Shown piece by piece: positions 22,512-45,003 of a stretch of 64,000 nucleotides of DNA (the first letter of the stretch is position 1; every line of letters begins with the position of its first letter). The notes below the pieces were generated by a model. That model had not been told where the DNA came from and did not search any database. It worked only from the letters and a program-made list of their open reading frames with translations. Origin of the DNA: Planctomycetota bacterium (GTDB lineage Bacteria; Planctomycetota; UBA8108; SXIK01); assembly GCA_965223845.1 (NCBI GenBank), contig CBDCXR010000004.1, positions 6,016,001 through 6,080,000 of the forward strand. Direction: 5' to 3'. Both the position numbers and the translations under genes were made by a program.

Positions 22512-22533
22512 CCTCGACGGAGAGAGCGGCCTC

Positions 22534-24024: not shown

Positions 24025-24248
24025 AGCTCAAGTTCCCCGGCGCGCGTGGACTCATCGTTGCGCTCATCTGCGCTGCGATCGCTCTAGCGCTTCCCTACGT
24101 GATCCACGTCGAGCACCACGGCGGATTCTGGGAGAAGATTCCGGCGTGGTGGGCGCTCTTCGGAGCGGTCGGCTGCGTCGTGATCATCCTCGCGAGCAAG
24201 GCGCTCGGTGCGATCCTCCTTCAAAAGCCGGAAGACTGGTATGACTGA
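24021..24248 (+). CDS. Small membrane protein within the Mrp operon
   Basis: 75 aa, 2 hydrophobic segments, WEKIPAWWALFG...KPEDWYD; overlaps both neighbours. Confidence 0.8.
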   Translation: MKLKFPGARGLIVALICAAIALALPYVIHVEHHGGFWEKIPAWWALFGAVGCVVIILASKALGAILLQKPEDWYD

Positions 24249-26151
24249 GGCGCGCCGAGCTTCGATCGCGATCGCCGTGTTCGCGGCCTTGAGTGCAGGG
24301 GGAGGTTCCCTATTCGCGGCCGACGTACCCGCCGAAACGGCCGGTGGACTCGGTCTCGCCGTGGATCCAGTCTCGCTTCCCGCCCCGGCGAGCTCGATTC
24401 CGGGCGCGGTTCCCCCGGCGCTCTTCCTTCTCGCCGGCGCCCTCGCTCTGCCCGCGCTTCCCCGCGCTCTCCGAGGGGTCGCCACCGTCCTCGTTCCCGC
24501 GGCGGCGTTCTGGTGGATCCTCGCCGAGCTCACGCCCGGCGCGACGCTCGCAGTGCCGTTTCTCGGCTACGAGCTCCAGATCGTACGCGCCGATCGACTC
24601 AGCATCGTCTTCGGCCTCATCTTCTCTGCGGTCGGGGTCATCGCCGGCGTCTACGCGCTTCACATGACCGAGCGGCGACAGCAAGTTGCCGCTCTCCTCT
24701 ACACGGCGGGAGCGCTCGGCGTGACGTTCGCGGGTGATTGGTTCACGCTCTACGCGTTCTGGGAGCTGATGGCGGTGGCGTCGACCGTTCTCATCTGGGC
24801 GCGGCGGACGGTCGACTCCGAGCGCGCGGGGACGAGGTACATCATCGTCCACCTCGCCGGCGGCGCGTTGCTCCTCGCGGGAATTCTCCTTCACGTCCAC
24901 GAGACGGGCTCCATCGCGTTCGAGCATTTCGATCCCTCCGGCGACGCGAGCGCAGGTGCGTGGTGGATCCTCATCGGCTTCGCCGTCAACGCGGCGATTC
25001 CACCGCTCGGCGCTTGGCTTCCCGACAGCTATCCGCGCGCCACGGTGACGGGCGCCGTGTTCTGTTCGGCGCTCACGACGAAGACGGCGGTGTACGCACT
25101 CATCCGCGGATTCCACGGCTGGGAGATCCTCGTCGTCGCGGGAGTGGTGATGGCGCTCTACGGCGTCGTCTACGCCGTTCTCGCGAACGATATCCGCGAG
25201 CTTCTCGCGTACCACATCATCTCGCAGGTCGGTTACATGGTCGCCGGCGTCGGACTGGGTTCCGAGCTCGCTCTCAACGGCGCGGTCGCGCACGCCGTGT
25301 GTCACATCCTCTATAAGTCCGTCCTCTTCATGGGCTGCGGCGCGGTGATCGAGACGACGGGCCGCTCGAAGCTGACGGAGCTCGGAGGATTTCTCAAACG
25401 GCAGAAACTGATCTTCGCGCTCTACATGATCGGCGCGTTCTCGATTTCGGGCTTTCCGCTTTGGAATGGGTTCATCTCAAAGTCGATGGTCACCGCGGCG
25501 GCGCACGAGGTGCACGTCGACTGGGCGTTTCTTCTCCTCATGCTCGCCTCGGTGGGAACGTTCCTTCACACCGGGCTCAAGCTCCCCCACGGCATCTGGT
25601 TCGGCGAGGACAAGGGGATCGCGCCGCGCCGCGCGCCGGCGAACATGCTCGCGGCGCTGGCGCTTGGCGGGGCGCTCTGCACTCTCCTCGGCGTTTGGCC
25701 CGCCCTTCTCTACGCTTTCTTGCCGTTCGAAGTGCGCTGGGAGCCGTACACCGCCGCGCACGTCATCGAGATGGTGCAGATCCTCCTCTTTACGTTCTTT
25801 GCGTTCTACCTCTTCATCCCGAAGCTGAAGGGAGAGCCGACGATCTCGATGGACACGGACGTCGTCTATCGAAAGCCGGCCCCCGCGGCGCGAGCGGTGT
25901 TCGTCGATGCCCCCGCGGTGGCGTTCGCGGCGATCGAGCGGATCGCGCTCGCCGTCGCGCGCCGACTCGACTCGCTTCTTCGCGATCCCACGCGCGGGAT
26001 CCCCGGCGTACCCCGCGCCGTCGAGGGCGACGAGGATGGCTACGACGAAGATCGCTGTCGCCGGCCGCTCGGTGTTTCGCTCGCGCTCACGCTTCTCGCC
26101 TTTGCGGCCCTCGCGGCGTGGTCGCTCGTCGCCGCGACCTCGGGTAGGTGA
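24241..26151 (+). CDS. mrpD: Mrp antiporter subunit D-like transporter (copy 3)
   Basis: FWELMA, AWLPDSYP, TTKTAVY, LLAYHIISQVGYM and SISGFPLWNGFISKSM; start at ATG 24241. Confidence 0.88.
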   Translation: MTEARRASIAIAVFAALSAGGGSLFAADVPAETAGGLGLAVDPVSLPAPASSIPGAVPPALFLLAGALALPALPRALRGVATVLVPAAAFWWILAELTPGATLAVPFLGYELQIVRADRLSIVFGLIFSAVGVIAGVYALHMTERRQQVAALLYTAGALGVTFAGDWFTLYAFWELMAVASTVLIWARRTVDSERAGTRYIIVHLAGGALLLAGILLHVHETGSIAFEHFDPSGDASAGAWWILIGFAVNAAIPPLGAWLPDSYPRATVTGAVFCSALTTKTAVYALIRGFHGWEILVVAGVVMALYGVVYAVLANDIRELLAYHIISQVGYMVAGVGLGSELALNGAVAHAVCHILYKSVLFMGCGAVIETTGRSKLTELGGFLKRQKLIFALYMIGAFSISGFPLWNGFISKSMVTAAAHEVHVDWAFLLLMLASVGTFLHTGLKLPHGIWFGEDKGIAPRRAPANMLAALALGGALCTLLGVWPALLYAFLPFEVRWEPYTAAHVIEMVQILLFTFFAFYLFIPKLKGEPTISMDTDVVYRKPAPAARAVFVDAPAVAFAAIERIALAVARRLDSLLRDPTRGIPGVPRAVEGDEDGYDEDRCRRPLGVSLALTLLAFAALAAWSLVAATSGR

Positions 26152-26402
26152 TTGTTTCGCCCGCGGTCCTGCGCTTGCCCTCATCTGCGCAGAACATCCG
26201 ACTCATCTCTCGTCCACGAATAGACGGCGTACTCCGTTTCACCGCCTGAACGACAGCGGAAACGCGTTTGCAAGGACGAGTCCGAGAGATAACGTAGAGG
26301 TTCGGGCCGAGACTGAATCCCAAGCGGGCTTGACGATCAGGCGGGGGGCTGAGTGGATCAGCACGGCGGCGGGCACCGCGCGTGCGCAACCCGGGCGTAG
26401 AC

Positions 26403-29400
26403 ATGATGCGTTGTTCGTGGGCATTGCCGGCGGCGCGGTGGCGCGGCGTCGTCGGAGCCGGAATCGTGGCTGCCGCCGCCGCGATTCTCTCCGGCTGCTA
26501 CGGAACGGTCGGCATCGTCGTCGCCGTGCTTCTCGACGACCCACCGGACGGGCCCGAAAACGCGACGGTGATCCTCCGCTCCGCGGCTCCCGTCGTCGAC
26601 GCCGACTCGTGCACGGACACGCTCGAGAGTCGGCTCGATCTCGACCGGGAGAGCGATGGCGCGCTCGTCTACACCACGAGCCCGATCCTCATCCGATTCT
26701 GTGTCGTCTCGAAGGACAGCGACAGCGAAGTTCGCATCAGCTATCGCATCCTCCAGGTGGAGTCCCCGCGGAACGCCGAGAGCGCCCTCGTCGGCCAGGT
26801 GCGAACGATCTCAAAGGCGGGGCGAAGGACCGGGTGCGACGACGTACACACGCTCGAGTGGAACGCGCGCGAAGCGTTCGCGGCCCTCGGAGTTTCTCGC
26901 GCGCGAGTGCAAATCATCGGAAGGGCACGCGGTTCGTCGGACGATCTGCCGCCGTTCTGGCTCGACTTGACCGAGCCTCCCGCCGTCGTGTCGGATCCGA
27001 TCCTCCGCCTCGGAACGGTCGACGAACCGGGAGAGCCGATGCGGGACGCGATCTACGGCGAAGCCCACGTCCGGCTTGAGCTCGGAGGCGGCGATCCTGA
27101 TACCGGAGCGCCTCGCGCGGCGCTCTTCTTCGCGCCGGACGGAGTGGGACCCTGCCCCGAGTTCTGCGCGGAAGACCTCGTCGCGCTCTCGAGCGAGCCC
27201 GTGACGACCGAAGACGAGGATCCGGCCGAGCCGCTCGAGCTCTTCGCGGAGTTCGATTCCGCTGAGGTTTCCGAATCGCGGGCGCGCGGCCATCTCGTCG
27301 TCGTTCCGTTCAGTACGCGGGTCGGTGAACCGAGGTGCATTCCGATCGAGATCGACAACCGGGTGCCGCGGTTCGAGGTGATCGCGCCGTCGTCGGCGCT
27401 CGCGGGGGTCGTCGGCGTCGCCGTGCGCGTCGAGCATCGCTCCGTTCCCGAGGCCGATTACCTTCTTCGCGCGGTCGACGTCGTCGCGCTCGATCCCGCC
27501 GGCGAGCCGAGCGAAGAGTTTCCCGCGACGCCGGCGCTCGGCGGGCGCAACGAGTTCTTCGCCGACGTCGACGCGGCCTGCGCGGCCGAGCCGGACCCGT
27601 TTCGATCTTCGCGAAAGCCACGCACATACGTGTGGAACGCACCTCGCGACGTGGACGCTTGGCTCGCCCGTGGCGGCGCCGTCGTGCCGCCGGCGACACT
27701 TCGCGTCACGATCGAGAACCAGTCGACCGGACGCATCTTCGCGCGTGAGTCGAACGTGATGACCTACGGCCGCGAACGCGTCGGGACGGTCGCCGGCGGC
27801 GGATCGCAGGCGAACACCTGCGCGGGAAAGATCACTTTTTCTTCCGTCGCGGACGTCGCGTTTGCGAACGGCTCGGTGTTTGCGGCCGACGACGTGCGGC
27901 AGACGATTCACCAGTTCGAGCTCTCGTTCGACTGCGCGGCGGACGAGCCGATCGCCTGTCAGCTCGCGCTCGCCGAGCCGATCCGGGTGTTCGCCGGGGA
28001 CGGGTTTCGAGGCTTCGACGCCGGTTCTCTGCCGGCGACGCTCGCGAGCTTCGATACGCCGTCCGGCCTCGCGGCCGCGCCCGACGGACGCATTTACATC
28101 GCCGACTCGGGGAACGACCGCGTTCGCTTCGTCGATCCGGAGACGCAGTTCCTCGAGAGCTTTCCACCGAGTGGCGGAGTGCGCTTCGATCGTCCGCGCG
28201 ATGTTGCGGTCGTGGCGCCGGATCCCGCGACACCCGGGCGTTACTTCGTCTACGTTGCCGACACGGGAGGAAACCGCGTCGTCCGCATCGATCCCCTCGA
28301 GCTCGAACCACCGGAGGTGGCCGCGACTCTCGCGGCTCCGCGAAGTCTCGCGGGGCGAGTGGAGGCTGGCGAGGTCGCTCTCTACGTCGCCGAATCGGCC
28401 GCGGACGATGCCGTCGCGTCGAGCTGCGGTCCGGCGACCGCGGGAAGCGGTCGCGTGGTTCGTATCGCGCGGGCGGCGGGCGGGACGTACTCGTGCGAAG
28501 CCGTTGCGGACTTTCCGAGTCCGATCGCGGTCGCGGTAGCGGGCGAGACTTTGTTCGTCGCCGATGAAGCGCGCCGCAACGTCTTTCGAGTTGGGGCGGA
28601 CGGGACGATCGAGGCGATCTTCGCCGACTTACCCGCGCTCGTCGAGGGCTTCGCGTGTGCACCGGAGAGCGGCGGTGGGGTTCGACTTTCGTGGGACGTC
28701 GATGACCCGAGCGCGCGAGTTCTGATCTCGCGCGATCCGGGATTCCCGGACGCACCGACGCGCGTTGCCGAGCTGGGCGCGGGAGGATTCGAGGACGCGG
28801 ATGCGCCGCCCGGAGTTTACACGTACTCGGTTCAGCGAATCGGTCCGCCGATCGCGGCGATCGACTGTGACGCGGAAGCGGCCGAACTCGCGAGCATCGG
28901 CGAGGCCGTCACCTGCCTCGCTGAGGTCGCCCCTCGTCCCGTCCGAGATCTCTCGTGCGCTCGCGCCGCAAGCGCGGCAGAGCTCACCTGGACGAACGAC
29001 GGCGTCTACGACGAGATCCGCATCGTCCGCCGTGATTCGCGTGGAGTCGTGAGCGAAGTCGTCGTGCCGGGGGACGCGGCTCGCTACGTCGATTCGACGG
29101 CGACCCGGCTGGGCGCGAGCTACTCCCTTCGCGGAGTGCGGGCGGAGGTCGCGAGCGACGCCGTCGACTGCGAGTTGACCGAGGACAAGCCTCCCGCGCC
29201 GTCGAGTCTCGTCTGCATCGCCGGTGCGACATCGGTCGAGCTGGCGTGGATGAACGCCGCGGAATACGACCGCCTGACCATCCGCCGGGAGTCGTCCGGA
29301 AGAGACGACGTCACGCTGCGGCTGCCGGGGAGCGTCGAGAGCTACATCGACGCGGCAGTCCCGCCCGGTGCCCAGCGGTACTTCGTCGCGGGTTCGATCG

Positions 29401-31319
29401 ATGGCATCGAGTCGGACGAGACGAGCTGCGAAGTCGTCGTGGACGCGTCGACACCGAGCGTTCGCGATCTCGCCATCGACGAGATCGGCGCGGAGGGTAC
29501 CGTCCGGCTGCGCTGGTCGAATGCGCCCGGCGGCTACGATTCCATACTCCTCAATCGCTTCCCGCCGCTCCCCGGCGGGAGTCGCGTGCTGGACGGAGAG
29601 AGTGAAGCATTCGAAGACGTCGGCGCCGAACCGAATCTCTACCGCTATCGCGTCGAAGGGATCCGCGGGTCTGAGCGGAGTGTCCCGGTCTCGGTGCGTC
29701 TCGTGTGGCCGGTCGAGAATCTCGCCTGCCGGGGTGACGAGGAAGTCGAGCTCCGGTGGTCGAACCCGAGCTCGTTTTCGTACGACTCGATCGTCGTCAC
29801 CGCGGAGAGCAGCTCCGGGAGGACGCTCGTCTACAACTTGCCGGGGAGTCACGAATCGATCACTCACTTCCGTACGCCCACGGACGCGTTCACGTACATC
29901 GTGCGCGGTGTCGAGAGCGGAGAGTCGAGTCCGGACGCGACCTGCGTGCTCGCGGCGAACGCCGCTCGGGGTCGCGCCGGTGGGATGGACGTCGACCCGA
30001 ATGCGGCACGCCGCATCGAGCCGCGTGGTCTCGCGGCGGGGCCGTGCGACACCCTTCTCATCGCGATCGGATCGTCGGATCCACTCGCTCGCCGTCAAGT
30101 TCTCGTCTGGGACGATGCCCGCCGCTCGCTCGCGCGTCTCGCCGGTCTCACCACGGTGCGCATCGAAGAGATCGAGCGCCCCGGTGAGACGATCCCGATC
30201 TTTACCTGCGAAGACATCGGCGACGGCGCGATCGAGATCGCTCCGATCGACGAAGAAACCGCTGCTCCGAGCGCACTTCCGATCGCCGCGACGGAGGCGG
30301 AGCTCGCCGAGCCGGCGCGCCTCGCGCTCGAGTCCGCGGAGAGCGGAGAAACGGTTGCCGTCTACGTCTCCGACGCTCCGCAGAGCCGCGTCGTCCGCGC
30401 CGACGGTTGCACTGGAGTCCTCACGGAGTTTGCGGCCGTCGACTCGCCCGGTTCGATCGCGACGGACGGTCGTGGCTCGGTGTACGTCGTTGCTTCGAGC
30501 GGTGGGAGGCGCGTCGTGCGCGTGCTTCCCGGGGATTCGGTGCTCGAGTTCGCCGAGCAGCCGGTGGGGCCGGTCCACATCGCCTGGGATCCCCTCCGTG
30601 AGCGCCTTTGCTACGCGACCGATTGGACCTTTGGATGCTTCGACGGCGAACGGGCGGTGTCGCGCCGGTACTCGCTCACCTACACGCCGAGCCGTGGCGG
30701 CGCGCTCGAGGTCGAAGCGGTCGCGGCGCGCGTCGATGCCCTCGCCATCGACCGTGCCGGAGATTTCGCGATCGCGGGACGATACTCGGTCCGGATCACG
30801 GATGTTGAGCTCGGCGTCCACACCGTCGCGGCGGACGTTCGCGTCATCGGGATCGACGGCGATGCGATCGACACTCCGGGTGAGATGACCGCGCGCGATT
30901 TCGTTCGCGGCACCTACGCGTCGACCTGTGATCTCGTGGAGGAGTCGCGGCGAGACTTTCCGAGCGTCGTCGAGGTGCGCGGGCTCGCGTTTCTCCCCGG
31001 CGGCGACCTCGTGCTTGCCGAGCGGACGGCGGAGGGCCAAAGCTTCGTGTACCTCGTGAGCGCGGAGAGCTTCGCGGCCGGCCGGCCGGAACGAAGCCTC
31101 ATCGCGGGCGGCGCGCTCAGTCCTGCGGATCCACGGGAGCTCATCGGAGTCGACGCCGACGGCAGCGACGCGCGGGTGACGCTGATCCCCGAGCTCTCCG
31201 ATCTCGAGACGGATGCTCTCGGAAATGTCTACTTCACCCAGCTCGGGGGACGGCGCGTGCGGCGGTTTTCGCCCGATGTGTCGATCGCAGGCGAAGAAGA
31301 GGGCGGCGATGAACCCTGA
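26403..31319 (+). CDS. Large putative lipoprotein with NHL beta-propeller repeats and about five Fn3-like modules
   Basis: Lipobox-like ILSGC; NHL motifs (PSGLAAAPDGRIYIADSGNDRVR, VYVADTGGNRV); repeated V..L.C....V.L.W.N...YD.I.I.R modules. Start is uncertain (26382 GTG, 26403 or 26406 ATG). Confidence 0.75.
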   Translation: MMRCSWALPAARWRGVVGAGIVAAAAAILSGCYGTVGIVVAVLLDDPPDGPENATVILRSAAPVVDADSCTDTLESRLDLDRESDGALVYTTSPILIRFCVVSKDSDSEVRISYRILQVESPRNAESALVGQVRTISKAGRRTGCDDVHTLEWNAREAFAALGVSRARVQIIGRARGSSDDLPPFWLDLTEPPAVVSDPILRLGTVDEPGEPMRDAIYGEAHVRLELGGGDPDTGAPRAALFFAPDGVGPCPEFCAEDLVALSSEPVTTEDEDPAEPLELFAEFDSAEVSESRARGHLVVVPFSTRVGEPRCIPIEIDNRVPRFEVIAPSSALAGVVGVAVRVEHRSVPEADYLLRAVDVVALDPAGEPSEEFPATPALGGRNEFFADVDAACAAEPDPFRSSRKPRTYVWNAPRDVDAWLARGGAVVPPATLRVTIENQSTGRIFARESNVMTYGRERVGTVAGGGSQANTCAGKITFSSVADVAFANGSVFAADDVRQTIHQFELSFDCAADEPIACQLALAEPIRVFAGDGFRGFDAGSLPATLASFDTPSGLAAAPDGRIYIADSGNDRVRFVDPETQFLESFPPSGGVRFDRPRDVAVVAPDPATPGRYFVYVADTGGNRVVRIDPLELEPPEVAATLAAPRSLAGRVEAGEVALYVAESAADDAVASSCGPATAGSGRVVRIARAAGGTYSCEAVADFPSPIAVAVAGETLFVADEARRNVFRVGADGTIEAIFADLPALVEGFACAPESGGGVRLSWDVDDPSARVLISRDPGFPDAPTRVAELGAGGFEDADAPPGVYTYSVQRIGPPIAAIDCDAEAAELASIGEAVTCLAEVAPRPVRDLSCARAASAAELTWTNDGVYDEIRIVRRDSRGVVSEVVVPGDAARYVDSTATRLGASYSLRGVRAEVASDAVDCELTEDKPPAPSSLVCIAGATSVELAWMNAAEYDRLTIRRESSGRDDVTLRLPGSVESYIDAAVPPGAQRYFVAGSIDGIESDETSCEVVVDASTPSVRDLAIDEIGAEGTVRLRWSNAPGGYDSILLNRFPPLPGGSRVLDGESEAFEDVGAEPNLYRYRVEGIRGSERSVPVSVRLVWPVENLACRGDEEVELRWSNPSSFSYDSIVVTAESSSGRTLVYNLPGSHESITHFRTPTDAFTYIVRGVESGESSPDATCVLAANAARGRAGGMDVDPNAARRIEPRGLAAGPCDTLLIAIGSSDPLARRQVLVWDDARRSLARLAGLTTVRIEEIERPGETIPIFTCEDIGDGAIEIAPIDEETAAPSALPIAATEAELAEPARLALESAESGETVAVYVSDAPQSRVVRADGCTGVLTEFAAVDSPGSIATDGRGSVYVVASSGGRRVVRVLPGDSVLEFAEQPVGPVHIAWDPLRERLCYATDWTFGCFDGERAVSRRYSLTYTPSRGGALEVEAVAARVDALAIDRAGDFAIAGRYSVRITDVELGVHTVAADVRVIGIDGDAIDTPGEMTARDFVRGTYASTCDLVEESRRDFPSVVEVRGLAFLPGGDLVLAERTAEGQSFVYLVSAESFAAGRPERSLIAGGALSPADPRELIGVDADGSDARVTLIPELSDLETDALGNVYFTQLGGRRVRRFSPDVSIAGEEEGGDEP

Positions 31320-31343
31320 ACGATCGCACGAGAGAGGTTCGCG

Positions 31344-32675
31344 ATGATCTCTGCAGAAGCTCTGGACGACCTCGTCTACCAGATCAAGAACCGCGAGCTC
31401 GTTCCGGTCGTCGGCCCTGAGCTTCTCGTCGTCGAGTGGGAAGGTCGCGAGCGGCGTCTCTACGATGTCATCGCGGATCACCTCATCGATAAGCTTCGCA
31501 TCGATCGCGCGGCCCTGAAGATTCGTCCGACGCTCAGCGAGGTGGCCGCCGAGTATCTCGTGCGGCAGCCGCGCGGGAGAGGAAAGCTCAATCTCGCGAT
31601 CCAGCGCTTCCTCGACGAAACGTCGTTCGAGGTTCCCACGCCGCTCCGCCGGCTCGCGGAGATCACCGACTTCAGTCTCTTCGTCTCGACGACGTTCGAC
31701 GGGCTCCTCGAGCACGCTCTCAACGAGGTGCGCTACGGCGGCGAAGACCGCACGATCCGCGGCGCCTACGCGATTCGTACGCAGGCCGACGACATGCCGG
31801 ACGACATCCCCGAGCTCCACGCGTCGTCGGAAGCCCATGTCTACCGCCTGTTCGGCCGGATCTCGAAGCACGAGGACCAGGTCATCCTCGATCGGGACGC
31901 GCTCGAGTTCTTCTCCCGCCTCCACGAGCCGCGGCAGAGACCGCAAAACCTGTTCGATCTCCTTCGCGATCAGCAGCTTCTCATCCTCGGCTGCAACTAT
32001 CCGGACTGGCTGACCCGCTTCTTCGTGCGTCTCCTCTGGGGTGCGCCGGCCGAGAATCGGACCGGTGGTGACTGGGTCGCCGACCGAGAGACGAGAGCTC
32101 AATCCGGCCTGACTGCGTTTCTGCGGAGCGGCGAGATCGAGTACCTCCGAAGCGGCGACTCCGTCGACCTCGTCCGGCGACTTCACGAGGCGTGGCGCGC
32201 CGCGACACCGACCGAGGCGAGGACGGAGAAGCCCAAGGTTCCGCAGGGTTGCGTGTTCCTCAGCTTCTCGAGCGCGGATCGCCGGCACGTCGCCCGCTTG
32301 CGCGACCAGCTGAAATCGAACGGGCTCACCGTGTGGTTCGACGAGGAACGAATCCTCTACGGACAGGACTACGCATCGGTGATCGCCGCGGGAATCGAGA
32401 AGGCGCAGTGGTTCGTTCCCTGCATCTCGAAGAACACGGCCGACCAGGAAGACCGCTACTTCCCGGTCGAGTGGGAGATCGCCGTCAAGCAGGTCGAGCG
32501 GATCGGGATCAACAACATCTGCCCCGTCATCCTCGATAGCAGCTCGCCCCACGATCTCGTCATCCCGCCCGCGTTCAAGCGCGTCCGGATCGCCGACTGC
32601 CCGAACGGCAATCCGCCGAATGATTTCGTCCAGCGACTGCAGAAGAGCGAGCCGGAACCGCTCCCCGTTTCATGA
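31344..32675 (+). CDS. SIR2-like domain plus TIR domain protein
   Basis: N-terminal SIR2-like layout VPVVGPEL / VSTTFDGLL / YRLFG / LILGCNYPDW; C-terminal TIR VFLSFSSAD...VWFDE...FVPCISKNT...YFPVEW; RBS GAGAGG. Confidence 0.85.
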   Translation: MISAEALDDLVYQIKNRELVPVVGPELLVVEWEGRERRLYDVIADHLIDKLRIDRAALKIRPTLSEVAAEYLVRQPRGRGKLNLAIQRFLDETSFEVPTPLRRLAEITDFSLFVSTTFDGLLEHALNEVRYGGEDRTIRGAYAIRTQADDMPDDIPELHASSEAHVYRLFGRISKHEDQVILDRDALEFFSRLHEPRQRPQNLFDLLRDQQLLILGCNYPDWLTRFFVRLLWGAPAENRTGGDWVADRETRAQSGLTAFLRSGEIEYLRSGDSVDLVRRLHEAWRAATPTEARTEKPKVPQGCVFLSFSSADRRHVARLRDQLKSNGLTVWFDEERILYGQDYASVIAAGIEKAQWFVPCISKNTADQEDRYFPVEWEIAVKQVERIGINNICPVILDSSSPHDLVIPPAFKRVRIADCPNGNPPNDFVQRLQKSEPEPLPVS

Positions 32676-35600
32676 GTACGTCGACACAGCCCCCCAATGT
32701 CGCTTCGGCGACGCCGGAGAACCCGTGGCTCGGGCTTCGATTCTTCGAAGAGTCCGACCAGCGGTTCTTTTTTGGTCGGGAGCGCGAGGTCGCGCAGCTC
32801 TTTCGCCTCGTTCAGCGCGAAGTCGCGTCCGTTCTCTTCGGGCAGTCGGGGCTCGGGAAGAGCTCGATTCTGAATGCGGGACTCTTTCCGCGGCTCCGCC
32901 GTCGGGGGTTCTTCCCGGTGCGCGTGACCTTCGACTACGGAGACGGCGACGACGCGGAGTCGCCGACCCTTCTCGAGCAGACGCGCCGGCAAATCGAGCA
33001 TGCGCTCTCGCTGCGAGGGATCCAGACCGAGCGTGACGAGGACGCCCCGCTCGCCGAGGACGAGACGCTCTGGGAGTACTACCAGAACACTCGGTTCTGG
33101 GACGGTGCGCGTCTCGTGACGCCCGTGATCGTTTTCGATCAGTTCGAAGAGATCTTCAAGCGAGGGCCGACCAGCCCTCGCGCGCTCGCATCGACGCAGG
33201 AGTTCGTTGAGGAACTCGCCGATCTCATCGAGAACCGGATCCCGGAAAGCGTGCAGCAGAGGATTCGCTCGGCCGATCTCCCCGGATTTTCCGCGCGCGC
33301 GCCGCGGGTCAAGATCGTCCTTTCCTTGCGCGAAGACTACCTCGCCGATCTCGAGGAGCTCGTCCCGGGGATTCCGTCGCTTTCCGGACGCGTTCGTTAC
33401 CGGCTCGGGCCGATGGCGGGCGACCAGGCGCTCGACGCGATCCGCGAGCCCGCCGAGGAGAAGCAGCTCCTCGAGGAAGGCGTCGCTGAAAAGATCCTCG
33501 ATGCGATTCGCGAGTCGCGGCGACGGACCTCGTCCCGATTCCTCCCCTTCGTCCGCGACCGCTCGCGCACGATCGAGGTCGAGCCGTTCCTTCTCAGCCT
33601 CTTCTGTCGCGAGCTGAATGAGCTCCGCGACCCCCGACGACGCGGCGGAAAAGCGGGCGCGCGCAAGCTTACGCGCATCACCGCGGACCTCGTCGAGTCG
33701 CACCAACGAGGGATCCTCCGCCACTTCTACGAGTCGTGCCTCCGTGATCTCCCGAACGCGGAGAAGGTGCAAACCTTCGTCGAGGATCGGCTCGTCGGTG
33801 AGACCGGCTACCGCGAGCTCGTCTCGACCGAGCGGGCGAAGCGCGAGTTCGAAATCTCCCCGTCGACTCTCGACAAGCTCGTCGAACGTCGTCTCCTTCG
33901 CCGCGACGAGCGCCGCGGCGTCGTCCACGTCGAGCTCGCCCACGACGTCCTCGTCGACGAGATCGTCGAGAGCCGCCGGCGCCGCCGACTTCGCGCGCGG
34001 CAGAAAGCTTGGCTGAGGCAGGCTTTCCTTTGGTCGACCATCGCAGTCTTTGCCGCGACGCTGATCGGCGTCCGGCTTTTCCTCCTCGTCTTCGAGAGGG
34101 ACGTTCGGGTTTCCGACGACCACTACACGAGCCGGGAGAGCCGGAGCGTCGCGGTGGATACGTCGAAGCTCGAGCTTCCGGATGGCGCCGACGTCAGTGC
34201 CTACACCTGGTCGAGCGCCCTCGGCGGGGTGGGAACTCTCGGACTCAAGGGGAACTACTTGACCGGCCGGATTCTGAACGTCGGTGAGAGCGAGGCGAGT
34301 CGCGTGCTGACGCTTCTCGGACGGAAGGTCGGCATCTTTGAGACCGAGGTTCTCCGCCTCCCGGTCAGCGTGATCTTCGACGACGATTCGCCGACCGTTT
34401 CGCCGGACGAGATCACCTTCGCCAATCAGGGCGGCGTGCTCCGCGATCCCGCGAAGTTCGCCGCCGAGGAGCGCGTTCGCATTCGCCATTCGGCGCGCCT
34501 TGGCGTCGTGGTCACCGATGCGAGCCCTTGTCGAGTCGAGCTGCGACGCGCGGGTTCCGAAGAGGTCGTCATGACGGCGAGCTTGGCGACGGCGGACGAG
34601 GCCGACGTTTCGCAGCGGAGCGACGATGCGGCGGGGCCCGGAGACGAGGGCTCAGGAACGGCGGAATTTCGCGGAGAACAAGTCCGCCGCTATCAGTTCA
34701 ATCTTCAGGAACTCGCGAACTCCGCTCCGCTTCCGCCGGGACCGATCGATCTCGAGATCTACGTCGAGGATGCCGCGGGTCATTCCGCAGAACTCATTCC
34801 GCTCAGCCTCACGATCGACAACGGCCCCGAGCTTTCCGCTGACCCGCAGACCGATCCGCCGCTCTTCGGCGCGGGACGCGCGTTCCTTCCCGTTCGCGTG
34901 GCGGCGGGCGAGCTTCTTCAAACCGTGAGCTTCAACATCGACTCCGATCAGGGCGAGATTTCGGAGCCCGCGGTGTTCTACGCCCGGGAGCAGATCGAAG
35001 AGTGGAGGCGGAATCGCTGGAGCGGCGCGGACGCGACCGGGTTCGATGCGCTCAGCGCCGTCACCGACCCGGCGCTGCTCGAGCACACCACCAACTACTG
35101 CCTCGCCGTCCCGCTCGCGCCTCCGCCAAACGGCGCTCAGACCTGGACGCTCAAGCTGCACGTTCGCGACAATTCCTTCCCGAGCAAGCTCGGCGAGCCG
35201 GAGTTTACGTTCGGTCTACCCCCAGGATTCGACCTCTCACCGAGCGGCGCCGACGACTACCCGTTCGAATCGGTGCGTGCGGGGACGACGTTTCTCGGCG
35301 CCGACGAGTACGCCTACTCCGACTCGGGTCCGGGCCCGGCCCGGCTCGGTCCGATCCAGGCGACTCTCGCTGCGAACTGCGACTTCGTCGAGATCCGCGT
35401 CGGTGCCGACGGAGATCCGCAGCGGGGCGCCGTCGCCGGCGACGATGTGAAGTTCGACGAGCTCGAGCTTCAGCCCGACGCGCGCAACGAGGTCACGATC
35501 CGGGTCGCCGATCTCCTCGGTCGGACCTTCGAGAAAACTTGGACGATCCGGCCCGATCGAGCTCCTCCTTCGATCGATTTGATCGTTCGCCCGGCCGAGC

Positions 35601-37003
35601 AGAACGATACGACGAATCGAGTGCGGTACGTGTTCGAAGTCGCGGCGGACGAACCGGTCGCGCAGGCGACGCTGCAGGCTACGTGGCGGGTGGACTCGGA
35701 GGAGCGGCGGTCGTCGTTCCCGCCGACGCCGGAAAACTCACTCGTTTTCGAGCCAGTGCTTTCCGAGCGCGACTACACGCTCACGTGTACGGCGAAGGAC
35801 GCCGTGGGAAACTCGGGAGAAGCGGTCGTGGCCGTGTCCGTCAATCCGCGAGGTCCGCGCGTCACGACGATGAGTGGGCAGGACTTCGTCGAGCCGGATG
35901 CCGTGACGGGTGTCGTCCGTCTTCGGGCCGAGGACGGGAACGGGATCGACGTCGACGGCGCGTCCATCGAGTTCCGGGTCTCGCACGGAAAAGGACGAGG
36001 ACTCACCGTGACAGCGAGCGGAAGGCTGGAGCGAGGATCGATTCTCGAGGTCACGCCCGACGAGCCTCTCCCGATTCCGTCGCGCGGTTCGATCGAGATC
36101 AAGCTCCGCGATTCGCCGGCCGACGGCAACTCGCTCGAAACGACGACGAGTCTCCCCTACGTCCTCGAGCCGAACTGGCGGCCCTGTGTCGAGTGGCCAC
36201 AGGGATCTGGGCTGAGCTGGATCTTCGTCGAGAGCTTTTACATCCTTCAGACCGAAGTTTCGAACGAGAGCTTCGCGGCGGCCGTCGCGGGAGGCGTGGT
36301 CCGCGCACCGAAGTACTTTCGCCCCAACGGGACGGTTCGCTACGAGCGCGCGGGGCGCCCGATCGACGGCGCGCGGTATCCCGTCGTCGGCGTCGAGCCG
36401 GACGACGCCCTCGCCTTCGCGAAGACCATCGATCCGGGCGCGCGCCTCCCTTGGTGGGACGAGTGGCTCGACGCCGCTCGGCGCGACAATCCCTACGACG
36501 ATCACCCCGGAAAGAGCGACGACGACTGGGACGGTGTGAACTTTCGCTCGCGCTCGCGACCGAGCAATCAGGCGCGCGAGCGTGACGAGCGTACCGATCG
36601 GATTCTCGCGCGTGAGCCGCTTCCGTGTTTTCACGTTCCGGTCGACTACGGTCTCGGCGGGCACGCTCCCGGTTCGCCCCGGTGCAGCGAACCGGGCGTC
36701 CACCGCCTCCTCCACCAGCTCGGGAACGTGCAGGAGATCGTCCGGAGGAACGGGAGCGAAAGCGAGCCCGCCTACGGCGTCGTGGGGGGCTTTTACGATT
36801 CGAACCTCGACGTGATCCTGCGGCCGGGACGCCGTCCTCGACCGTATCGTGCCGCGGCGCATCGCTCGTTCACGACCGGTTTCCGTCTCGTGATCGATCC
36901 GGAAAAAGCGTCGGAGGCGTTCAAGCGCGAGGCGCGCAAAGAGACGAACCGAGAGACTGCGGACGAAGCCCCCGGCGGAGAGGAGACGCGCGATGGCCGC
37001 TGA
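32672..37003 (+). CDS. nSTAND1-type NTPase with a transmembrane helix, beta-rich ectodomain and C-terminal FGE-sulfatase (SUMF1-like) domain
   Basis: ENPWLGL..F.E....FFGRERE; Walker A GQSGLGKSS; Walker B VIVFDQFEEIF; LSLREDYL; VELAHDVL; TM AFLWSTIAVFAATLIGVRLFLLVF; FGE-like QTEVSN, YPVVGV..DDALAF, RLPWWDEW, GNVQE and GFRLV. Confidence 0.85.
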   Translation: MSTSTQPPNVASATPENPWLGLRFFEESDQRFFFGREREVAQLFRLVQREVASVLFGQSGLGKSSILNAGLFPRLRRRGFFPVRVTFDYGDGDDAESPTLLEQTRRQIEHALSLRGIQTERDEDAPLAEDETLWEYYQNTRFWDGARLVTPVIVFDQFEEIFKRGPTSPRALASTQEFVEELADLIENRIPESVQQRIRSADLPGFSARAPRVKIVLSLREDYLADLEELVPGIPSLSGRVRYRLGPMAGDQALDAIREPAEEKQLLEEGVAEKILDAIRESRRRTSSRFLPFVRDRSRTIEVEPFLLSLFCRELNELRDPRRRGGKAGARKLTRITADLVESHQRGILRHFYESCLRDLPNAEKVQTFVEDRLVGETGYRELVSTERAKREFEISPSTLDKLVERRLLRRDERRGVVHVELAHDVLVDEIVESRRRRRLRARQKAWLRQAFLWSTIAVFAATLIGVRLFLLVFERDVRVSDDHYTSRESRSVAVDTSKLELPDGADVSAYTWSSALGGVGTLGLKGNYLTGRILNVGESEASRVLTLLGRKVGIFETEVLRLPVSVIFDDDSPTVSPDEITFANQGGVLRDPAKFAAEERVRIRHSARLGVVVTDASPCRVELRRAGSEEVVMTASLATADEADVSQRSDDAAGPGDEGSGTAEFRGEQVRRYQFNLQELANSAPLPPGPIDLEIYVEDAAGHSAELIPLSLTIDNGPELSADPQTDPPLFGAGRAFLPVRVAAGELLQTVSFNIDSDQGEISEPAVFYAREQIEEWRRNRWSGADATGFDALSAVTDPALLEHTTNYCLAVPLAPPPNGAQTWTLKLHVRDNSFPSKLGEPEFTFGLPPGFDLSPSGADDYPFESVRAGTTFLGADEYAYSDSGPGPARLGPIQATLAANCDFVEIRVGADGDPQRGAVAGDDVKFDELELQPDARNEVTIRVADLLGRTFEKTWTIRPDRAPPSIDLIVRPAEQNDTTNRVRYVFEVAADEPVAQATLQATWRVDSEERRSSFPPTPENSLVFEPVLSERDYTLTCTAKDAVGNSGEAVVAVSVNPRGPRVTTMSGQDFVEPDAVTGVVRLRAEDGNGIDVDGASIEFRVSHGKGRGLTVTASGRLERGSILEVTPDEPLPIPSRGSIEIKLRDSPADGNSLETTTSLPYVLEPNWRPCVEWPQGSGLSWIFVESFYILQTEVSNESFAAAVAGGVVRAPKYFRPNGTVRYERAGRPIDGARYPVVGVEPDDALAFAKTIDPGARLPWWDEWLDAARRDNPYDDHPGKSDDDWDGVNFRSRSRPSNQARERDERTDRILAREPLPCFHVPVDYGLGGHAPGSPRCSEPGVHRLLHQLGNVQEIVRRNGSESEPAYGVVGGFYDSNLDVILRPGRRPRPYRAAAHRSFTTGFRLVIDPEKASEAFKREARKETNRETADEAPGGEETRDGR

Positions 37004-37988
37004 TCGCCTCATTCGACCACTCTTCACGCTCCTCTGCGCCAGCCTCGTACTCTTCGGACTTGGATGCCGGAGCACGGTGAGCCCGGACGTGAGGAGGAGC
37101 GGTTCGCTTCCGTTCGTCGTCGCGATCGAAGGTCGAGAGGGCGACGAGCACGGGCTCTCGATGATTCGACTTCACGAGGACTTCATCGCGAGCGAGGCGT
37201 TCACGTATGTGACGACGCCGAGCGACGGCATCGTCCCGGATGTCGTGATCACACTCGGCGTGAGCGGCGAGTCGTTCGGCGAGTTCACCGTCGACACTCT
37301 CGGCGCGAGCCTATCCACCACCACATGGCTCTTCCTCGGCTACGTCGGTTGGTTCTTTGCCGACCACGTCTACATGGATTCCAACTACTTCGCTGAAATC
37401 TCCGCCGCCGTTCCCGAGTCGAAGCACCGGCTCGACTTCTACCGCGATACGGTGAGCCTGAACGCCTTCGAGCTGAGTCGCTTCGACCGCGTCCCGGAAG
37501 AGAACCGATCCTGGGACGTTCTCGCCGGCGTGTTCATTCCGCCGTTCGCTCCGATGTCGATTTCGACCGAGGCTCTCTGGCGCCAGTCGGAGGAGCGGCT
37601 CGTCGTCGATGGGATCGGACGAATGGTGCGCGGGTTTCCACTCGGCTACCTCGAGCAGCACGGCTGCTACGTCGTCTACCGGCCCGATCAAGACGACTTG
37701 ATCCTCGTTGCCCGCGAGATGCCGTTCGCCGTGACGTTGACGGCCAAGGAGACGGGCTCGAAGCGCACGCTCGACCTCGAGGCGATCACGACGCGAGAGC
37801 TGCGCGACCCGGAAACGGAGGAGAGTGTCCGGCGCGATCTCTCGGAGCGCGGACTCGGGATCGGTGGAACTCCACTCGACCGTCTCTATCTCATTCCGCT
37901 CACCGATCGAGAGCTCGGCTTCGTTCGCATCGCCATCGAGCTCCAGACTTCGAGGGGCGACTTCACGATCGAGAGACCGCTCGAGTGA
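36993..37988 (+). CDS. Putative lipoprotein of unknown function
   Basis: Signal peptide ending LFGLGC; RBS GAGGAG; overlaps the NTPase stop by 11 nt; internal hydrophobic stretch. Confidence 0.7.
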   Translation: MAADRLIRPLFTLLCASLVLFGLGCRSTVSPDVRRSGSLPFVVAIEGREGDEHGLSMIRLHEDFIASEAFTYVTTPSDGIVPDVVITLGVSGESFGEFTVDTLGASLSTTTWLFLGYVGWFFADHVYMDSNYFAEISAAVPESKHRLDFYRDTVSLNAFELSRFDRVPEENRSWDVLAGVFIPPFAPMSISTEALWRQSEERLVVDGIGRMVRGFPLGYLEQHGCYVVYRPDQDDLILVAREMPFAVTLTAKETGSKRTLDLEAITTRELRDPETEESVRRDLSERGLGIGGTPLDRLYLIPLTDRELGFVRIAIELQTSRGDFTIERPLE

Positions 37989-38161
37989 TGCGAGCTCGTT
38001 CACCTCTTCCGCCTTTCGCTGCGATTCTCGCTGTGGACGCCGCGCGTTCGTAGCGATAGCTTGGCTCCCGTTCACCGGCTGTCGGCCCGTCGCGCGGTCT
38101 CCCCGGCCGTGCGGTGCGACGTCAGCAACCCGTCTCGTGAATCGCAGTGAGCAGCGACGCT

Positions 38162-38887
38162 ATGAGTAAGCACTGGTGGAGGCGACTTTTCCTCGTCCCG
38201 AGCGTACTGGTGCCGCTCGCCGTCGGACTCGGTTCCTTCGCTTGGGGACTCGTCGCCGGCAGCTCCGCCGTCACGACGACCGTTGGGATCGCGGGCGTCG
38301 TCCTCGGAGTGGGAGCGGCGGCCTACCGCGCGATAACGAAGGGCGACCGACTCTCGAAGAAGGCTGAACGAGATGCCGCGGACGAGCGCGCCGAAGGCGA
38401 GCTCGAGGCTTTCGACCGGCTCGAGCACCGTCTCTACAACGACGACGATCCGAACACGACGGCGATGGCGCGCAAGCTGCGCGAGCTCTACGAGCGGATT
38501 CGGAAGGTACCACTGACGAGCTCCGAGACTTCCGCCGAGGTGCGAAAGCGCGCTCTTCGTCTCTGTCTCTCGTGTCGAACTTCGCTCGAGCGCACGGTTG
38601 AGCTCTACGAGGCGAGCGAGCGCATGGCGACCGAGGAGACTCGTGCAGAGACGCTCCGTTCGCGCGAGGAGCTGCTCGGCGAGATCCGTGCGAGCATGGA
38701 GAAGCTCGGCGCGACTCTCGACGAGATCGAGTCGACGCGCCTCGAGAAGCGAGTTCCCGAAAGCGGGAGCGAGGCGCTCGCGCGGGCGCGGCTCGAGCTC
38801 GACGAAGGGCTCGCGGTCGCGCGGCGGGTGGAGGAGCGGATGGAGGAGTTCCATCGTCGCTTCGATCGAACGGCGGGGCGCGAGTAG
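38162..38887 (+). CDS. Hypothetical membrane protein (2 TM segments plus coiled coil)
   Basis: Two N-terminal hydrophobic helices followed by an E/R/L-rich helical region. Confidence 0.75.
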   Translation: MSKHWWRRLFLVPSVLVPLAVGLGSFAWGLVAGSSAVTTTVGIAGVVLGVGAAAYRAITKGDRLSKKAERDAADERAEGELEAFDRLEHRLYNDDDPNTTAMARKLRELYERIRKVPLTSSETSAEVRKRALRLCLSCRTSLERTVELYEASERMATEETRAETLRSREELLGEIRASMEKLGATLDEIESTRLEKRVPESGSEALARARLELDEGLAVARRVEERMEEFHRRFDRTAGRE

Positions 38888-39113: not shown

Positions 39114-39965
39114 ATGCGGACCCTGACAACTCTCTCGCTCGTCCTCGCTCTCCTCTCGGTCGATTCCGGCGCCGTCTTCTCCCAGGACGCGGCCGGTGCG
39201 ACGGGAAGCCGGCGGTCCCGAGCTGTGGTCGACGTCGAGATCGAAGCCGGAACTGTCGTCTCGTACTTCGAGATTCTTCGCGAGCGGTATGCGCTCAATA
39301 TCCTCGTCGATCCGAGTCTCGCGCAGACATCGATCCGCATGCCCGCGGTGCGCCTCCGAAACGTCTCGCCCGAGGCGGTCGCCACGCTTCCGATGGAAAT
39401 CTCCGAGGCCGCCGATCACGGCCTTGAGGTGGTCGAGCACGACAGCATTTTCGTCGCGCGGATTCGAACCCCGGTGAGGCCTTCGCGCCGGCGATCGCAG
39501 CAGGTCGAGAATCGTATCCAGACGGTCGTGAATTCGCTGGCGCCGATGCTCCGGTCGCCGACACCCACGAAAGACGAACTCACGGAAGTCGACAAGCTCC
39601 TCCGTGCGATCGATCAGGCGGTCGAGCTCCTCGGTGCGGAGACGAAGCCGATCATCCGCGTCCATCCCGAATCGAAGATTCTTCTCATGCGCGGGGAACA
39701 AGAACCGCTTCTCTTGGCGTCCGAGGTGATCGAACATTTTCTCTCGCTTCGCGAGGAGTCCACGCTCGACGAGGAGAACCGAAAGCTGCGAGCGGAGATC
39801 GCCACCCTGAAGGCCGATCTCGAGAAATCCCAGCTCCACCTTCTCGAGCTCAATCACATGCTCCAGCTCGAGAAGGAGCGCGTGGCGGCAGCGAAGCAGG
39901 CGGCTGAGGACGCCGCGAAGGCAGCGAGCGAAGCGGTGAAGGCCGCGGCGGGACAGCGCCCCTGA
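39114..39965 (+). CDS. Secreted protein with secretin N-domain-like segments and a C-terminal coiled coil
   Basis: RBS GGAGG; signal peptide; NILVDPSL..VRLRNVS and IRVHPESKILLMRG segments; heptad-rich C-terminus. Confidence 0.65.
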   Translation: MRTLTTLSLVLALLSVDSGAVFSQDAAGATGSRRSRAVVDVEIEAGTVVSYFEILRERYALNILVDPSLAQTSIRMPAVRLRNVSPEAVATLPMEISEAADHGLEVVEHDSIFVARIRTPVRPSRRRSQQVENRIQTVVNSLAPMLRSPTPTKDELTEVDKLLRAIDQAVELLGAETKPIIRVHPESKILLMRGEQEPLLLASEVIEHFLSLREESTLDEENRKLRAEIATLKADLEKSQLHLLELNHMLQLEKERVAAAKQAAEDAAKAASEAVKAAAGQRP

Positions 39966-39972: not shown

Positions 39973-40599
39973 TTGAATCGCTCGCTCGTGAGTGAACTTC
40001 CCCCGGGATCCGGCGCGCGCGGCGCGCGCGCCGGCCGGGGATCTCAACTTTCCGATCGTGACGTGCGCACCGTCACCGCGGCCATTCACCGCGGCGACCG
40101 AGCGGCGTTCGCGCGCTTCTACGACGCGTGGTTCGACGCCGCTTTCGTTCTCGCCCGCACGGTGACGCGGCGCGACGAGTCCTTTTGTCTCGACGTAGTG
40201 CAATCGGTGATGATGAAAGTCGTCGACTCTCTCCCGCGGCTCGACTCAGCCGCGAGCCTTCGCCAGTGGATGGCGCGCGTCATTCACAACGCCGCGATCG
40301 ATCGCATCCGGGCCGAGACGCGTCGAGCCGAGCGCGAGCGCGAAGCCGCGACGGAGCGACCGGATCGCGACGCGGCGGATCCCCGGGGGGATTTGATCCT
40401 CGCCGAGGATCTCGAGTGGGTGCGGAGGCGCGTCGCCGAGTTGCCCGAGGCGGAGCGAGCGCTCGTCGAGTATCGCTTCGGGGATGGATTGACACTAGCC
40501 GAGACCGGACGGATCCTCGGGATGACGGGAAACTCGGTTCACAGCAAGCTCCGCGGCATCCTCGCGAAGCTGCGCTGGAAGGCAGGAGAAGGAAAGTGA
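39973..40599 (+). CDS. ECF-type RNA polymerase sigma-70 factor
   Basis: GDRAAFARFY, DVVQSV, LRQWMARVIHNAAIDRIR and LPEAER...GLTLAETGRILG..GNSVHSKL. Start is uncertain. Confidence 0.9.
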   Translation: MNRSLVSELPPGSGARGARAGRGSQLSDRDVRTVTAAIHRGDRAAFARFYDAWFDAAFVLARTVTRRDESFCLDVVQSVMMKVVDSLPRLDSAASLRQWMARVIHNAAIDRIRAETRRAEREREAATERPDRDAADPRGDLILAEDLEWVRRRVAELPEAERALVEYRFGDGLTLAETGRILGMTGNSVHSKLRGILAKLRWKAGEGK

Positions 40600-44900: not shown

Positions 44901-45003
44901 CGGCGGACTTGCGGGCGCGCGTCCCAAAACGCCTCTGTTGTCGTTGACCGGATTCTGCCGCGGCGCGTACGCTGAACGGTCGTTCACCGGCGGATGCGGA
45001 GCG

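Follow-up and report, generated by a model that had tools for sequence, protein, structure and literature searches.

Bacterial NLR-like (STAND) immune proteins have been studied as cytoplasmic sensors of phage proteins. Among the described systems close to the locus reported here are the STAND NTPase-FGS counter-invader systems of Kaur et al. 2021 (eLife, PMC8195603), in whose paper nSTAND1 was named. The locus lies in a 64,000-nt stretch of DNA from a Planctomycetota bacterium (assembly GCA_965223845.1, contig CBDCXR010000004.1, positions 6,016,001 to 6,080,000 of the forward strand), called the window below. It comprises four co-oriented genes: g1 for a large NHL-repeat protein, g2 for a protein with SIR2-like and TIR domains, g3 for an nSTAND1 NTPase with a membrane helix and a long C-terminal part ending in a domain like formylglycine-generating enzyme (FGE), and g4 for a small lipoprotein. 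In the sections of PMC8195603 that describe them, the STAND NTPase-FGS systems resemble g3 in joining nSTAND1 to a C-terminal FGS domain of lectin fold as the presumed sensor, and TIR is among their effectors. They carry N-terminal effector-associated domains or fused effectors, whereas here the effector g2 is the product of a separate gene and no adaptor domain was detected in g3: no Pfam domain was found ahead of nSTAND1, which starts at residue 18, a short cryptic adaptor not having been searched for. Their FGS domain is intracellular, whereas the helix of g3 would put it outside the cytoplasm, and two lipoproteins accompany the NTPase here. They are also frequently diversified by diversity-generating retroelements (DGR), whereas no reverse transcriptase (RVT_1) match was present in the genome of the window, which is 91.7% complete, so that DGR diversification of the FGE-like domain is not supported.

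Kibby et al. (10.1101/2022.07.19.500537) described bacterial NACHT proteins whose C-terminal membrane regions may serve to sense signals in the membrane or the periplasm, and in PMC10907252 one periplasmic C-lectin STAND target was predicted. These proteins differ from g3 in belonging to another NTPase clade and in having multi-pass regions or being DGR targets, and the passages on them in the two sources describe no lipoprotein partners or kinase-swapped ectodomain. Thoeris shares SIR2-like and TIR domains with the locus, and weak PADLOC matches to ThsB were obtained with g2. However, g2 holds both domains on one protein, has lost the SIR2 Asn and His, has no SLOG or Macro domain and is partnered by a STAND NTPase. 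Given the weakness of the ThsB matches (best E 2.5e-4) and of the ThsA match (E 3.8e-4), together with the loss of catalytic residues, the assignment to Thoeris was rejected. Avs/bNACHT was rejected as well, since no PADLOC family matched g3 at E <= 0.1 and the architecture differs: in those systems one polypeptide combines the effector, the NTPase and a sensor in the cytosol, whereas g2 and g3 make up a separate effector and a predicted outside-facing sensor. No PADLOC model covered g1, g3 or g4, g2 had only TIR-level matches, and no NCBIfam model exceeded its cut-off for the proteins of the locus. This agrees with a preliminary description of the DNA, made from its letters, in which the arrangement was not recognised as a named system. 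The texts covered by a literature search, supplementary tables aside, contained no description of a pair of pseudo-SIR2-TIR protein and membrane nSTAND1, of the g4 family or of an exchange of receptor heads. In kind, the locus would be an nSTAND1 conflict or signalling system, in which the exchanged sensor and the lipoprotein partners appear to be new.

The locus is best explained as a natural chimera of two separately conserved modules, which would sense an envelope cue and activate a TIR NADase; we give this reading a probability of roughly 0.6. Module A is a gene pair related to g2 and the first part of g3, and module B is a receptor gene, related to the rest of g3, with a g4-family lipoprotein gene. 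The gene order and all spacings given in the preliminary description were reproduced by the open reading frame (ORF) scan, with a 24-nt gap between g1 and g2, a 4-nt overlap of g2 and g3 and an 11-nt overlap of g3 and g4. The domain content assigned there (NHL; SIR2-like and TIR; nSTAND1, transmembrane helix, ectodomain and FGE-like domain; a 331-aa lipoprotein) agreed with Pfam and hydropathy. The features, numbered from the first letter of the window, are as follows.

26382-31319, plus strand: g1, with a GTG start at 26382, 1645 aa; the ATG at 26403 gives 1638 aa
26481-26498, plus strand: g1 lipobox AILSGC (sequence motif)
27357-27803, plus strand: g1 beta-sandwich segment common to cassette-linked NHL lipoproteins, residues about 330-475
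27513-27542, plus strand: g1 motif EEFPATPALG, inside the beta-sandwich segment
about 27969-28631, plus strand: g1 NHL region (Pfam NHL, 1.7e-8)
about 28599-30011, plus strand: g1 Fn3-like repeats (weak matches)
about 30249-31301, plus strand: g1 second propeller-like region
31344-32675, plus strand: g2, ORF of 443 aa
about 31371-32213, plus strand: g2 SIR2-like domain
31686-31712, plus strand: g2 STTFD, with Thr117 at the presumed catalytic Asn position (alignment to 7uxt_B)
31839-31865, plus strand: g2 RLFG, with Phe170 at the presumed catalytic His position (alignment to 7uxt_B)
about 32241-32618, plus strand: g2 TIR domain
32460-32483, plus strand: g2 Glu376, the conserved TIR Glu (family alignment and AbTIR alignment)
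32672-37003, plus strand: g3, ORF of 1443 aa
32672-34036, plus strand: g3 head, predicted cytoplasmic nSTAND1 NTPase (domain 32723-33958)
32840-32866, plus strand: g3 Walker A, GQSGLGKSS, with Lys63
33125-33151, plus strand: g3 Walker B, VIVFDQFEE
34037-34093, plus strand: g3 single transmembrane helix, residues 456-474 (hydropathy 2.33)
34094-37003, plus strand: g3 predicted ectodomain, an all-beta (Ig-like) array followed by an FGE/C-type-lectin-like domain (FGE-like part about 36209-36946)
36993-37988, plus strand: g4, ORF of 331 aa
37050-37067, plus strand: g4 lipobox LFGLGC with Cys25, after the signal peptide

The composite nature of g3 was evident from the distribution of similarity along the protein. 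Similarity to module A proteins continues through the helix to residue 480, and similarity to planctomycete receptor Ser/Thr kinases starts at about residue 544, the ectodomain from there on resembling the ectodomains of these receptors; by tblastn, g3 and the kinase receptor genes were 23-28% identical over 443-966 aa. No protein covering both parts of g3 was found among 5.8 billion sequences, where 79 of 79 hits covered at most 34% of it, in a search that is insensitive to an ectodomain of 25% identity. Four public runs, from two samples of a single study that may have supplied the data of the assembly, each contain one contig that spans 30800-38200 with zero differences, which makes a misassembly at the junction inside g3 unlikely. 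As judged from these comparisons, g3 is a chimera whose head and helix come from module A and whose ectodomain comes from module B, and the partner genes of both modules have been kept.

Module A is a widespread two-gene unit without a name, in which a SIR2-like/TIR protein is paired with an nSTAND1 protein carrying a helix and a variable sensor. Full-length relatives of g2 fell into 26 protein clusters, 23 of them with both SIR2_2 and TIR_2, and pattern scans found 407 genome loci, from Opitutaceae, other Verrucomicrobiota and Beta- and Gammaproteobacteria, and 271 metagenome loci. The counts given for module A rest on 160 loci, 80 kept from each set. In 146 of them an nSTAND1 gene started at most 800 nt downstream of the g2 homologue on the same strand; 13 of the other 14 had less than 800 nt of contig left downstream, and the last had its nSTAND1 gene 2 kb off. 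These nSTAND1 genes were 36-43% identical to g3 residues 1-480, and the 4-nt overlap recurred in 22 of 102 complete pairs. The proposal that the NTPase has a separate cytoplasmic TIR protein as its partner is supported by this gene order.

The membrane helix had been taken as a peculiarity of this locus, STAND proteins being typically cytoplasmic, and this did not hold. A single hydrophobic segment follows the NTPase closely in 91 of the 102 complete nSTAND1 genes, six having none and five having two, and in 73 of the 79 database homologues of g3 such a segment starts at residues 398-508, so that the helix is the rule in the clade. Lys plus Arg within 15 residues averaged 5.12 before the helix and 2.86 after it in 88 clade members, with more before the helix in 75 and fewer in only one, which argues that the NTPase lies inside and the remainder outside. 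The part after the helix varies. It contained TPR_12 in 24 and WD40 in 19 of the 67 genes scanned (taken from the 102 if they had a single helix between residues 420 and 560, were at least 1000 aa long and fell within the residue limit), and FGE-sulfatase was not among the 25 commonest families there. No conserved third gene was found beside the pair. In the phylum, full-length g2 is present in 3 of 401 genomes; the two other homologues precede nSTAND1-helix proteins of 2033 and 2111 aa, in loci with neither the g3 ectodomain nor g4. In gene order, in the 4-nt overlap, in the dead residues of the SIR2-like half and in the conserved Glu of TIR, the window agrees with module A. The sensor elsewhere is TPR, WD40 or unassigned, whereas an Ig-like array and FGE ectodomain with lipoproteins was found only in the window.

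Two variations of module A were noticed in passing. About ten loci (L087, L088, L100, L109, L116 and others) have extra TIR-domain genes directly upstream or downstream, and at L255 (G264:C3, 7281-9466, minus strand) a 299-aa SIR2-like-only gene with no TIR directly precedes a 1644-aa nSTAND1-helix gene, constituting a TIR-less form of the module.

The two halves of g2 differ in their state of preservation. Pfam assigned SIR2_2 to residues 112-229 (2.8e-8) and TIR_2 to residues 304-422 (6.2e-19). The TIR domain of the family retains FxSY, WFD and the Glu; Glu376 is kept in at least 90% of 25 family sequences and, in a profile alignment with the Protein Data Bank (PDB), falls on the Glu of the AbTIR NADase. 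The SIR2-like half matched solved SIR2 proteins weakly (7uxt_B at E 0.005, besides the ThsA match given above). The Asn of TTNYD in 7uxt_B aligns with an invariant Thr of the g2 family and the His of LHG with Leu or Phe, and these positions are presumably the catalytic Asn and His of SIR2, so that NAD consumption by the SIR2-like domain is unlikely. Both domains had been put forward as NAD+-consuming; this may hold for TIR, with its catalytic-type Glu, and is unlikely for SIR2. No hydrophobic segment was detected in g2 by hydropathy. The protein would therefore seem best described as a predicted cytoplasmic effector with an intact-looking TIR domain and a catalytically dead SIR2-like half, and the latter may dock g2 to the NTPase or bind nucleotide.

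The head of g3 matched nSTAND1 (PF20703) over residues 18-429 at 4.8e-34, with 119 bits against a cut-off of 27.1, and Pfam found no Pkinase match in g3. Three other nSTAND1 genes in the genome of the window, G000 (contig C4, at 1870285, 4481814 and 4495289; frames of 2087-2332 aa) are nearer to the Pfam model than g3, with 328-347 bits against 115, and are more typical. A helix had been placed at about 34020-34095, and a single strong hydrophobic segment was indeed found there, at 34037-34093. It is flanked by RARQKAWLRQAFLWS on the N-terminal side, with Arg/Lys, and by the acidic ERDVRVSDDHYTSRE on the C-terminal side. With one helix, Arg/Lys before it and acidic residues after it, g3 is predicted to have its N-terminus inside and the part after the helix outside the cytoplasm, as had been supposed for the sensor.

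Module B is a planctomycete envelope-sensing cassette made up of a receptor with an array of beta-sandwich domains and a non-catalytic FGE-like end, plus a g4-family lipoprotein. Homologues of g4 with 27-30% identity were found in 4 of 40 relatives, at five places, and at all five the gene immediately before the homologue is similar to the last 440-970 residues of g3, with no match to the NTPase part of g3, to g2 or to g1. The four upstream genes that are complete encode Pkinase, a membrane helix, Big_13-like beta domains and FGE-sulfatase. Wider searches, with G000 included, found the g4 family in 22 of 401 phylum genomes using a first profile and in 21 of 59 class genomes using a deeper one, giving 40 g4-family loci other than the window, on which the module B counts are based. 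A kinase head is present in the same-strand upstream gene at 24 of these, and FGE-sulfatase was found by Pfam in 9 of 11 receptors scanned. The other 16 loci are limited by the contig, belong to one genus without a long receptor gene before the lipoprotein, or have an NHL protein instead; at none of the 40 was there an nSTAND1 head or a g2 homologue. The window shares with the module B kinases a homologous ectodomain (up to 966 aa), a g4-family gene downstream, tight coupling and, as in some of them, an upstream NHL lipoprotein; thus g3 and g4 have the layout of module B. The difference lies in the head, a Hanks kinase in 24 of 40 loci of module B and in the window an nSTAND1 NTPase with a TIR partner gene.

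In the genus just mentioned (g5; loci L035, L036 and L039-L041), the g4-like genes have multi-pass membrane proteins nearby.

FGE-sulfatase (PF03781) was assigned to g3 residues 1183-1306 at 1.4e-8 (35.1 bits, cut-off 23.3), and a family profile matched FGEs of known structure as well as PorK/GldK and the FGE domains of kinases, with E values as low as 8.6e-26. The LCHDSYC segment of the Streptomyces coelicolor FGE (6muj, 2q17), whose cysteines we take to be the catalytic pair, aligns with a stretch of the family consensus that has no Cys, and g3 reads VGGFYDSNLDVILRPG there. The lack of Cys at these positions argues that the FGE-like domain of g3 is a binding fold and not an enzyme, and an identity as formylglycine-generating enzyme was ruled out, the catalytic cysteine pair after the RGGS motif being missing. 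The ectodomain retains the invariant columns of its family alignment and is present as a single copy in its own genome.

None of 54 members of the g4 family had a Pfam match, and a search of 1.84 billion proteins found 182 representatives of the family at E <= 1e-3. The lipobox Cys is present in five of five close homologues, and g4 retains every invariant column of the 54-sequence alignment. The AlphaFold2 (AF2) model of g4 was of high confidence, with a predicted local distance difference test score (pLDDT) of 91.7 and a predicted template modelling score (pTM) of 0.85. Foldseek found nothing in the PDB at E <= 0.001, the top probabilities going to a DUF330 protein (2iqi_F, TM 0.27/0.44) and LptE. 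Two weak matches at E <= 0.001 in a viral library, with TM at most 0.27, assigned no fold, and in the ESM Atlas the scores were 0.85 or less, with no informative family. A dead-caspase identity, which was also considered, was rejected on the Pfam result and by the absence of a caspase among the fold matches. Conservation in the family is highest along a hydrophobic helix at residues 102-121 (about 37296-37355), in which Ser108, Thr109, Trp112, Gly116 and Trp120 are invariant or nearly so; this helix is a candidate for an interface or for an element that dips into the membrane. When a complex of mature g4 with g3 residues 884-1443 was predicted, the scores were 0.63, 0.62 and 0.55, and one unrelated control gave 0.50. 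By its inheritance alongside homologous ectodomains, g4 would be the cognate partner of the g3 ectodomain.

The place of g1 is less certain. It is probably a lipoprotein, a large exported NHL-repeat protein. The NHL assignment of the preliminary description was borne out by Pfam and the lipoprotein assignment by the lipobox motif, and the Fn3 part less so, with tenascin and Tencon Fn3 matches at E 0.002-0.03 and no Pfam Fn3 match. No full-length orthologue of g1 was found among the 40 relatives, in which only the generic Fn3-like repeats match widely. This would fit a unit of g2, g3 and g4 only, with g1 an unrelated surface protein lying 24 nt upstream by chance, and so would the lack of an NHL protein at 36 of 40 g4-family loci and at every module A locus, and the presence of a Shine-Dalgarno-like sequence of its own, GAGAGAGG, before g2. 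Against this, the sole match of the N-terminal 520 aa of g1 in 401 phylum genomes, an NHL gene in G131, abuts a kinase cassette: the gene for this 1078-aa protein lies 37 nt upstream of a kinase-helix-FGE receptor gene, followed by a g4-like gene, so that the order in the window parallels that of NHL lipoprotein, kinase receptor and lipoprotein in this other planctomycete, with g2 added. NHL lipoproteins also flank the cassette in G235, where a protein of about 1100-1200 aa is encoded on the same strand just past the g4-like gene, and in the orthologous loci of G024 and G026 (65% identical), where the gene for a 1105-aa protein with 8-9 NHL repeats directly precedes a g4-like gene (the G024 protein being cut at its N-terminus by the contig end). 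Three other genomes hold both families, which are neighbours in two of them. A signal peptide and a lipobox cysteine stand at the start of the G131 and G026 proteins, as they do in g1; a Gly-rich stretch comes next in those two and a short hydrophobic one in g1. The beta-rich segment before the propeller is common to g1 and all four cassette-linked NHL proteins, and the motif EEF(F)PATPALG to g1 and the G131 protein. Apart from the window, an NHL lipoprotein thus adjoins the cassette at 4 of 40 loci, which belong to three lineages. We consider a chance neighbourhood of g1 quite possible, with the balance somewhat against it. In the chimera reading g1 probably belongs, if loosely, to the extracytoplasmic set as a facultative member, for which these neighbourhoods are suggestive and not proof. 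Of the two exported partners proposed to flank the sensor, then, g4 is inherited with the ectodomain in the 40 other loci, and a g1-like protein accompanies it in only four.

At the G235 locus (L306, G235:C270), the g4-like gene and the gene for the NHL protein are separated by another ORF, whose start resembles a signal peptide (5047-6438, minus strand).

The preliminary description had treated the four genes as one system, and the lipoproteins were expected to accompany the TIR/STAND pair in related genomes. They never do: g1, the g3 ectodomain and g4 are absent from all 160 module A loci (E <= 1e-5), the lipoproteins are absent from the two other planctomycete loci of that kind, and none of the 40 g4-family loci holds the pair. 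This identifies the locus as a unique chimera and not a conserved four-part system. The nearest relatives of the ectodomain and g4 are from the same family and order as the host, whereas those of g2 and the nSTAND1 head lie outside the phylum, at 40-43% identity against 32-35% for the in-phylum copies. The simplest history would be that in a resident receptor the kinase head, together with its helix, gave way to g2 and an nSTAND1 head with its own helix, the direction of the swap being based on counts and not on a tree. Walker A and B and Glu376 of the TIR domain are intact at the locus, and no invariant column of the three family alignments has been lost. The third-position GC content (GC3, 0.80-0.83) and the second-position content (GC2, 0.41-0.54) of g1 to g4 are the coding signature of a GC-rich host genome, and the GC content of the locus is the same as that of the flanking DNA.

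In the proposed mechanism, the ectodomain with g4, and perhaps g1, would bind or monitor an envelope or external ligand. The signal would cross the single helix, probably by clustering, upon which the NTPase would exchange nucleotide and oligomerise, and the TIR domains of g2, brought together in this way, would cleave NAD+. Depletion of NAD+ or the making of a signal would then lead to growth arrest, death or another response. Since one outer cassette serves a kinase at 24 loci and a STAND head once, activation by proximity is favoured over a conformational relay specific to the head.

Functionally, though not by homology, this arrangement recalls animal Toll-like receptors, with a binding domain outside, a single helix and TIR output inside, and the lipoprotein partners can be likened to the co-receptor arrangement of TLR2, CD14 and MD-2. 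It differs in that the TIR domain is on a separate protein, coupled through the NTPase, and in that the ectodomain is not homologous. A tentative and rather doubtful extension of the chimera reading is therefore a Toll-like-receptor logic on an NLR chassis, in which a lectin-like ectodomain with two lipoprotein co-receptors would act through the STAND protein on a TIR NADase, the candidate ligands including phages and predators as well as kin and surface glycans. If true, activation by ligand-induced clustering across the membrane would be portable and shared by kinase and STAND/TIR heads, and the whole membrane nSTAND1 clade would consist of true transmembrane immune receptors.

A non-immune role has to be weighed against this. 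The locus could be an envelope-signalling device that responds to a physiological envelope or cell-contact cue, its TIR domain making a regulatory nucleotide or tuning NAD+. The sensor cassette feeds a Hanks kinase at 24 of 40 loci, the surroundings are of housekeeping type with no mobility or defence neighbours, the PADLOC systems match none of g1, g3 and g4, the GC content equals that of the surroundings, and with no reverse transcriptase found in the genome the FGE domain is not DGR-diversified as in the described conflict systems. However, the families of module A are otherwise tied to conflict systems (TIR NADases; nSTAND1, in the sections of PMC8195603 on these domains), the module is patchy in the phylum (full-length g2 in three genomes, as given above), and its sensors are swappable, as is typical of defence genes. 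On balance a purely physiological role seems unlikely to us. An immune role for the chimera is itself inferred, and a kinase-feeding sensor fits signalling equally well.

Several observations weigh against the chimera as a working sensor of envelope cues for a TIR effector. The combination has been seen once, so that conservation cannot be used to show selection for it, and the locus could be a young recombinant, unproven or perhaps even without function. In module B the usual output of the sensor is a kinase, which speaks for regulation rather than immunity, and no defence, phage or mobility genes were found beside the locus, the neighbours being a Mrp-type antiporter operon and an ECF (extracytoplasmic function) sigma factor. 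The topology of g3 was predicted from hydropathy and charge bias only, and the AF2 model of its ectodomain, all-beta and then alpha/beta, is of low confidence (mean pLDDT 59, pTM 0.35). The link of g1 amounts to four of 40 loci, and beyond the NHL repeats the similarity is weak (blastp E 2e-6; 3.5e-4 per genome). Finally, the four public contigs spanning the stretch are of DNA type and from one study, none being RNA. A reading of the locus as an accident of recent recombination, non-functional and still undecayed, would be allowed by its architecture, unique among all searched, and by the lack of a close orthologue for measuring selection. It is nevertheless very improbable, as all four reading frames are uninterrupted and their codon bias is normal, the three families retain their catalytic and invariant residues, the tight 4- and 11-nt overlaps are kept on both sides of the chimeric g3, and the 24-30% identity of the ectodomain and g4 to their nearest relatives argues for a long independent history as intact genes.

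If the locus functions as a chimera, its main value would be as a natural swap linking membrane STAND receptors to receptor kinases. In contrast to cytoplasmic sensing, a helix separates the NTPase from the sensor in the nSTAND1 clade examined. The exchange of the sensor for a kinase-receptor ectodomain with its own lipoprotein or lipoproteins argues that the region after the helix would be a self-contained extracytoplasmic sensing unit, which kinase and STAND/TIR outputs would read interchangeably. The handles offered are a homologous pair of sensors with two outputs, a g4 family with a confident model and no fold relative, and a dead SIR2 domain as candidate adaptor or nucleotide sensor.

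No tandem repeats were found in the locus. A scan of the locus for sigma-70-like promoters found none, and 5 terminator-like sites were found against 9.1 expected, none at gene ends, both scans being uninformative for a planctomycete. The other features of the window are the following.

13976-17065, minus strand: protein of 1029 aa, with a weak match of dockerin type close to the C-terminus
21027-26151, plus strand: three successive Proton_antipo_M genes (Mrp/Nuo-type antiporter subunits), 64-74% identical in the complete relative G003
38147-38887 and 39114-39965, plus strand: two ORFs after g4, co-oriented with it, with no Pfam family
39973-40599, plus strand: ECF sigma factor, co-oriented, 3' of these two ORFs
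43044-47184, plus strand: DUF885 protein and a PSCyt2/PSD1 (DUF1549/DUF1553) protein (family matches)

Synteny of the window with G003, the closest complete relative, ends directly after the Proton_antipo_M genes, and the 29 kb downstream of the Mrp operon in that genome are without matches to the window. The PSCyt2/PSD1 protein in 43044-47184 is of a type characteristic of Planctomycetota.

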